A stretch of 52,994 nt of DNA, filler included, from Dimargaris cristalligena (lineage: Eukaryota), in the NCBI GenBank assembly GCA_003614675.1. It is 2 parts of 2 records of this genome, joined end to end, with 100 filler letters (N's around TTAATTAATTAA, not from the genome) between each part and the next. Parts side by side here need not be neighbours in the genome. Positions count along the whole stretch, not along the records: positions 26,569 to 52,994 come from ML002541.1; 1 more part is not named here. One strand, 5' to 3'. Shown here in pieces: positions 52,378-52,994 of this stretch. The notes beneath the pieces were generated by a model. That model ran no database searches, was not told the DNA's origin, and saw nothing but the letters and a program-made list of their open reading frames with translations. Within the stretch, counting starts at the first letter, position 1. Each line of letters opens with the position of its first letter. Position numbers and translations under genes: made by a program.

Positions 52378-52994
52378 ATGCAGATTTTCGTCAAGACCCT
52401 GACCGGCAAGACTATCACGCTCGAGGTCGAGTCCTCGGACTCCATCGATAACGTCAAGCAGAAGATCCAGGATAAGGAGGGTATCCCCCCGGACCAGCAG
52501 CGCCTTATCTTCGCCGGCAAGCAGCTCGAGGATGGCCGCACCCTCTCGGACTACAACATCCAGAAGGAGTCCACTCTCCACTTGGTGCTTCGGTTACGTG
52601 GCGGCATGCAGATTTTCGTCAAGACCCTGACCGGTAAGACTATCACGCTCGAGGTCGAGTCCTCGGACTCCATCGATAACGTCAAGCAGAAGATTCAAGA
52701 CAAGGAGGGTATCCCCCCGGACCAGCAGCGTCTCATTTTCGCTGGCAAGCAGCTGGAAGACGGCCGCACCCTCTCGGACTATAATATCCAGAAGGAGTCT
52801 ACCCTCCACCTGGTTCTGCGTCTGCGCGGTGGCTCCACTTCCGACTCCTCCTCTCGGCCGGCTACGGCCCCTCCCTCTTCCACTCCCGTTGCGCCTTCCA
52901 CTTCGTCGCCATCCGCCCCCACTTCCATCTCCGTCGATGCCCCCCTTCCGACTCCCACCGGAACCGCCTCTCTGCTCCTACCCATGGCTTCCCC
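52378..52994 (+). CDS. Di-ubiquitin fused to a Ser/Pro/Thr-rich C-terminal extension; 3'-truncated at the contig end
   Basis: Ub1 52378-52605 and Ub2 52606-52833 ([76 protein letters not shown]), then [53 protein letters not shown] with no stop. TATAAA at 52100. Absent from the ORF track because there is no stop codon. Confidence 0.93.

Follow-up and report, generated by a model that had tools for sequence, protein, structure and literature searches.

Which kind of gene is it that, at the end of a stretch of DNA from Dimargaris cristalligena, places two complete ubiquitins in front of a Ser/Pro/Thr/Ala-rich open frame which runs off the edge of the available DNA? The canonical set of ubiquitin genes comprises polyubiquitin genes with one extra codon and genes in which one ubiquitin precedes eL40 or eS31 (PMC10457151; this and the other papers given by PMC identifier are cited from the portions of their text that were available). 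A tail of the present length sits uneasily in either class, and the question is whether it belongs to a polyubiquitin gene with an oversized cap or to a gene in which ubiquitin precedes a protein of another kind. The DNA that was analysed is a stretch of 52,994 nucleotides, filler included, hereafter called the window, and the gene occupies its last part. A previous interpretation, here called the sequence-only reading, had described the locus as two perfect ubiquitins fused in frame to a non-ribosomal protein, and its claims are taken up below where our results bear on them.

The layout of the gene is given in Table 1. Its ATG lies in the context CACC-ATG-C, and the translated product matches PF00240 twice in Pfam (E 8.1e-65). 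The two ubiquitin units are identical as proteins, and their DNA differs at 23 of 228 bases, of which 21 are at codon position 3 and two at position 1, all being synonymous. TRF recovered the pair as a repeat with a period of 228 bases and 1.9 copies, and the gene was without any other repeat. Aligned to solved structures, each unit is identical to human ubiquitin at 72 of 76 residues, the differing residues being 19, 22, 24 and 28, and a single-sequence AlphaFold2 model of the product folded into two beta-grasp units. These data show that both units are canonical and under strict purifying selection. The residue after the Gly-Gly of unit 1 is Met, and that after the Gly-Gly of unit 2 is Ser. 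The sequence-only reading was thus confirmed, with the right coordinates, in describing two intact ubiquitins that differ only synonymously, as well as at least 53 S/P/T/A-rich codons devoid of a stop (52834-52992 is open to the end of the window). Its term "perfect" holds for the units in the sense that they are intact and canonical, but not in the sense of identity to a reference, as they are four residues off the human protein.

Table 1. Positions of the elements of the ubiquitin gene in the window
Feature	Position	Strand	Description	Basis
Putative TATA-box-like motif TATAAATA	52100..52107	+	about 270 bases 5' of the ATG	function suggested by position alone
CT-rich leader, probably 5' UTR	52108..52377	+	270 bases, without ATG	0 ATG counted; composition, periodicity
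Ubiquitin unit 1	52378..52605	+	76 codons, ending LRLRGG	translation, Pfam, alignment
Ubiquitin unit 2	52606..52833	+	76 codons, ending LRLRGG	head to tail with unit 1, no spacer
S/P/T/A-rich in-frame extension (tail)	52834..52994	+	53 codons + 2 bases, starting STSDSSSR	stop-free to the end of the window

Contigs of two DNA runs (X1 and X5) and of two RNA-type runs (X6 and X22) were compared with positions 51900-52994. Runs X1-X4 represent one DNA sample, possibly the source of the window, and the contigs aligned were those of X1. Run X5 represents a different sample of this organism, sequenced in a different study, with 48% of words in common with the window. Contigs that cross the boundary between the second ubiquitin and the tail (52833/52834) were present in both. 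In X1, letters 1-330 of a contig of 633 letters (record 6) equal 52665-52994 with 0 differences. In X5, letters 2-294 of a contig of 1256 letters (record 21) correspond to 52702-52994 with three other letters and no gaps. A misassembly in a single data set can be dismissed as the origin of the junction. Both contigs also extend past the end of the window, by about 303 bases in X1 record 6 and by about 962 bases in X5 record 21. With regard to the junction between the two ubiquitin units, it is covered in X1 by a contig of 229 letters that is identical to 52437-52665, and it was left uncovered in X5 (52603-52676). Over the ubiquitin-coding positions, X5 differs from the window at 12 places, 11 of which are synonymous third-position changes; the remaining one, G to A at 52766, is non-synonymous (R54H) and lies in the unit that adjoins the tail.

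That the frame of the tail is open means little in itself, because the last 161 bases are stop-free in four of the six frames (every forward frame and a single reverse one), as expected of a stretch poor in A; for the same reason, the frame might close just beyond the window. The tail does, on the other hand, have a codon structure. Its 53 residues include 15 S, 11 P, 8 T and 7 A, and C occupies 77% of its second codon positions, with 30% at position 1 and 49% at position 3. The three-base periodicity, expressed as a base-by-phase chi-square of 27.1, was reached by none of 5000 shuffles. It was also higher than in all 622 windows of equal length from the presumably non-coding region 46000-52377 (maximum 23.3) and in each of 40 windows from the leader, which is just as rich in C and T and shows no coding periodicity (maximum 11.3). 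As for coding controls, the value falls inside their range, with medians between 13 and 33 (32.6 for ubiquitin, 25.1 for the S/T/P-rich ORF at 16445-17977, and 13.0 and 16.8 for two other ORFs), and the periodicity holds up to the last codon in the window. The third bases behave in a similar manner. In the NCN codons of the tail they are C, T, G and A with frequencies of.54,.29,.15 and.02, which is similar to the NCN codons of six long ORFs of the window taken together (C.55, G.21, T.17, A.07), and unlike the bases that follow C in non-coding DNA (A.27, C.31, G.18, T.25) or in the leader (T.48, C.38). Two other sources of the pattern were considered and rejected: a triplet microsatellite, as TRF finds none in the tail, and a decayed third ubiquitin unit or copy of a paralogue, as tblastn and blastn searches of the window with the tail match only the tail itself. 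As judged by the codon periodicity and the third-base preference, and with neither a microsatellite nor a decayed unit to account for them, the tail encodes protein in the frame of the ubiquitins, or did so until very recently.

We then consider the type of locus. In both X1 and X5, separate contigs leave the 3' end of ubiquitin into G-IIEPSLKALA and into GG-GKKK (read by eye), which we take to be the starts of eL40 and eS31, respectively. Seven X1 contigs had at least 90% likeness to the region compared, and all were explained by the present locus, Ub-eL40 and Ub-eS31, with the proviso that a second polyubiquitin locus below 90% base identity would escape at this threshold. Since the genes for Ub-eL40 and Ub-eS31 are separate, the present locus is, on sequence grounds, most likely a polyubiquitin-type gene. 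The claim of the sequence-only reading that the tail belongs to neither ribosomal protein was borne out by these separate contigs and by the Pfam search, in which residues 153-205 matched no family. X5 also contains a contig of 166 letters that joins the end of one ubiquitin to the start of another at a depth of 505, compared to 165-208 in the flanks. This hints that the X5 strain carries more, homogenised ubiquitin repeats, although contig depth is a poor measure of such. Variation in repeat number has reportedly been seen in yeast UBI4.

Relatives of the tail were sought in several collections. A word-index protein search with residues 153-205 gave 0 matches among proteins with lengths of 360-2000, 112-359 and 30-111, and phmmer gave 0 matches for the 53 tail residues among 1.84 billion representatives. 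A degenerate pattern of the junction had 0 matches in metagenome contigs, whereas a pattern made of the last four ubiquitin residues plus the tail matched 597 times, with none of the matches confirmed. The entire 205-aa product retrieved ubiquitin clusters alone from the ESM Atlas (0.75-0.77). It should be underlined that low-complexity queries are weak, so that these empty searches indicate no more than the lack of a recorded close relative. The genome itself is represented in part, since a neighbouring DUF4140/DUF4139 protein of 725 aa (18769-20946, + strand) is found letter for letter in the ESM Atlas, and the absence of any tail-bearing protein from the collections searched fits a partial gene model that was dropped. 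The Atlas clusters nearest to the DUF4140/DUF4139 protein are commonest in Rotifera and Basidiomycota. These clusters, ubiquitin residues of the fungal/plant type and the gene content would by themselves point to a probably fungal host.

We propose that the locus is a polyubiquitin-type gene whose last ubiquitin is fused in frame to a coding S/P/T/A-rich extension that continues past the window. The precursor would be cut after each Gly-Gly, either co- or post-translationally, and this cleavage would free two ubiquitins and a polypeptide with an N-terminal Ser. According to the available text of one source, deubiquitinases process ubiquitin precursors behind Gly76 and tolerate any following residue but Pro, polyubiquitin precursors are processed both co- and post-translationally, and the mammalian enzymes UCHL3 or USP5 remove C-terminal extensions (PMC4522658). 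Two free ubiquitins and a polypeptide initiated by Ser are expected because of this specificity, from which cleavage before the Ser of the tail would follow. The released polypeptide would then form the disordered N-terminal region of a passenger protein specific to the lineage. Such a passenger would be synthesised in constant proportion to ubiquitin and be more than filler. To this explanation as a whole, a polyubiquitin locus with a real and continuing coding extension that is a passenger and not filler, we give about even chances. We lean towards a coding region that continues because of the codon structure, which is kept up as far as the window reaches. A bolder version, which we regard as unlikely, is that the sole polyubiquitin locus of this organism might be the vehicle through which a lineage-specific protein is obligatorily expressed. 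Such a protein would constitute a third class of fungal fusion partner beside eL40 and eS31. One copy of it would be made for every n ubiquitins, n differing between strains, in step with stress-type ubiquitin synthesis, and its first residue would in each case be an unblocked Ser left by deubiquitinase cleavage. The sequence-only reading had proposed a functional passenger, a PEST-like role and coupling to the supply of ubiquitin; nothing in our analysis shows any of these.

A different account of the same features is that we are dealing with a polyubiquitin gene of the usual kind whose cap is exceptionally long and has no function; this cap would end a short way beyond the window, would only block the C-terminus of the last ubiquitin until a deubiquitinase removes it, and would then be degraded. 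The units follow each other head to tail without a spacer and Ub-eL40 and Ub-eS31 are encoded separately, which is how polyubiquitin genes behave, and the depth in X5, poor measure as it is, hints at extra repeats in that strain. Long extensions are also on record in the portions of the literature at hand: those of polyubiquitin precursors are stated to range from one residue "to a few dozens" (PMC4522658), and ubiquitin monomers of 89-190 aa with extensions have been documented (PMC6332867). The tail itself is low in complexity, without relatives in the searches described above, and predicted to be unstructured, as the single-sequence AlphaFold2 model has no secondary structure there and block pLDDT values of 46-58. 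Moreover, the sole tail difference between X5 and the window, T to C at 52889, changes V to A, and the substitution rate in the tail (1 in 161 bases) is no slower than that upstream in the leader region (4 in 478). The low complexity, the lack of relatives, the non-synonymous change between strains and the cap range in the literature are the reasons why we keep this account as a real possibility, although on the improbable side. What speaks against it is that a throw-away sequence has no reason to show either such strong periodicity, with C at 77% of second positions, or the third-base bias of coding DNA. In addition, the periodicity extends through the last codon of the window, and with at least 53 residues the tail is already at or above the stated range of caps.

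It is improbable, and clearly more so, that the tail lies outside the mature product, whether through an intron with a non-canonical donor, through an artefact of assembly or haplotype, or through the decay of this copy while a normal polyubiquitin gene exists elsewhere. Fungal intron donors have the consensus GTRNGT, and of the six GT dinucleotides in 52800-52994 (GTTCTG, GTCTGC, GTGGCT, GTTGCG, GTCGCC and GTCGAT) none fits it. An intron that removes the tail, a caution raised by the sequence-only reading, is therefore unlikely, as there is no canonical donor near the junction. The two RNA-type runs cover only the ubiquitin part of the gene (14 of 30 bins) and have no RNA over the tail, which would agree with a tail outside the product; both come from other organisms, however, so they are silent on expression of the tail in D. 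cristalligena. The depth of the X1 contig with the tail is lower than that of the contig upstream (20.7 compared to 54.8), but depths in X1 range from 5 to 72 even in essential genes and thus carry little weight. These values were also considered as a sign of heterozygosity, which was rejected since they are too erratic. In X5, on the other hand, the junction contig is at full single-copy depth (208, with flanks of 165-191), and the junction is common to both samples. As to decay, the R54H change in the last unit of X5 could mean relaxed constraint, and a polyubiquitin locus with less than 90% base identity would have gone unseen. Against decay, both units in the window are intact with synonymous differences only, and the gene has retained a TATA motif and an ATG-free leader.

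Lastly, it is very improbable that the ubiquitins stay uncleaved as a permanent N-terminal ubiquitin-like module, either of the proteasome-shuttle type or as a ubiquitin-fusion-degradation signal, for although proteins with permanent N-terminal ubiquitin-like domains followed by disordered linkers are common, such domains are diverged and usually without a free-standing LRLRGG, whereas both units here are canonical in sequence and end in Gly-Gly, with Ser and not Pro behind the second.

How does the proposed polyubiquitin-type gene with a coding extension compare with known systems? Like the polyubiquitin genes of the yeast UBI4 and human UBB/UBC type, it has 76-codon units for the same protein in spacerless head-to-tail order with an extension after the last Gly-Gly, its repeat number may vary between strains, and the eL40 and eS31 fusions are separate genes. 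It differs from them with respect to the cap, given as one codon (PMC10457151) or "a few dozens" (PMC4522658) in the text available, by at least 53 coding-like codons with the stop not in view. Compared with the Ub-eL40 and Ub-eS31 genes, it shares an N-terminal ubiquitin and a passenger that would be freed after Gly-Gly, possibly with the same logic of chaperoning or co-production. Those genes, however, combine one ubiquitin with a small, basic, zinc-binding ribosomal protein, whereas the present tail is acidic to neutral, S/P/T-rich and without a family.

Genes with several ubiquitins in front of other proteins have also been described. In the portion of their paper available, Sibbald et al. 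(2019) report 22 and 10 non-canonical ubiquitin fusion genes in two algae, with support from RNA-seq, and the partners placed behind two or three ubiquitins include actin, a zinc RING finger and hypothetical proteins of 614 and 832 aa (PMC6332867). The same authors argue that automatic annotation detects too few of such fusions; in Saccharomyces, a targeted search by them found none (PMC6332867). The D. cristalligena gene resembles the (Ub)n-X genes of Bigelowiella natans and Guillardia theta in having complete N-terminal ubiquitins (one to three in the algae) in frame with a non-ribosomal partner, and the algal fusions with two ubiquitins include those to the zinc RING finger and to the hypothetical proteins of 614 and 832 aa (PMC6332867). 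In contrast to the algal genes, for which RNA-seq and full-length partners are at hand (PMC6332867), the fungal case is known from DNA and from 53 low-complexity residues of its partner. Another source, as far as its available text goes, refers to tandem ubiquitins together with other domains as "exceptional hybrid architectures" and has rare ubiquitin fusions represented in animals, fungi and plants (PMC8122580). At the genomic level, the present locus is a (Ub)n-X gene, with complete ubiquitins in frame with a non-ubiquitin, coding-like sequence in two DNA samples. The layout is rare and of an already described kind, and less unprecedented than the sequence-only reading implied (PMC6332867, PMC8122580 and PMC4522658, in the portions available). 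In the literature searched we found no description of a fungal fusion of two ubiquitins to an S/P/T-rich protein, which is weak evidence of novelty as the passenger is outside the DNA analysed.

Should the tail continue into a real protein, the gene would be a natural fungal counterpart of the ubiquitin-fusion technique. A real passenger would also offer a tractable case in which to study what a non-ribosomal protein gains from a position behind ubiquitin, be it help in folding, a defined N-terminus or stoichiometric coupling. If the tail is only a cap, it would extend the known range of tail lengths in polyubiquitin genes and demonstrate that caps are able to look coding. Either way, the locus is a warning with regard to annotation, as partial or merged gene models at ubiquitin repeats are easily dropped.

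Upstream of the gene, the region 52100-52377 consists of 108 C, 107 T, 36 A and 27 G, and X5 differs from the window upstream of the coding sequence by four substitutions and one insertion of 8 bases. Heat-shock elements, as part of a stress-responsive promoter, are a feature of yeast UBI4. In the promoter of the present locus, no three-unit heat-shock element was found: the pattern TTCNNGAANNTTC, with at most one mismatch, is absent from 51197-52377, and it has 13 matches across the window where 10.5 are expected. An upstream region of about 6.5 kb that lacks recognisable genes would, according to the sequence-only reading, fit a heavily regulated gene; the gap between 45900 and 52100 measures about 6.2 kb. 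The gap is compatible with this idea in that it contains no recognisable genes, but the promoter gives it no support in the form of a heat-shock element. Hidden genes in the gap were considered and rejected, as its ten longest ORFs (76-149 aa) were without a Pfam match and the region was without an Rfam match.

The gap also contains a perfect (AG)23.5 microsatellite at 48884-48930, identified by TRF, and one window of 159 bases, starting at 50730, in which the periodicity is coding-like (chi-square 23.3). Going upstream from the ubiquitin gene, the first gene that can be recognised is an ORF of 226 aa on the - strand (45181-45861) with at least three RPEL repeats (PF02755, E 5e-30). Further away in the window, the S/T/P-rich ORF used as a coding control (16445-17977, + strand) encodes 510 aa, in which the motif "TPGYP" recurs and Cys and Asp form an acidic cluster, and has no Pfam family; it is overlapped by an antisense ORF of 340 aa, probably through composition only. 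Finally, an ORF of 453 aa on the - strand (4806-6167) combines a PPPDE/Peptidase_C97 domain (E 5e-45) with thioredoxin and PUL domains, and is predicted from these to be a deubiquitinase/desumoylase-like protein with a redox module.
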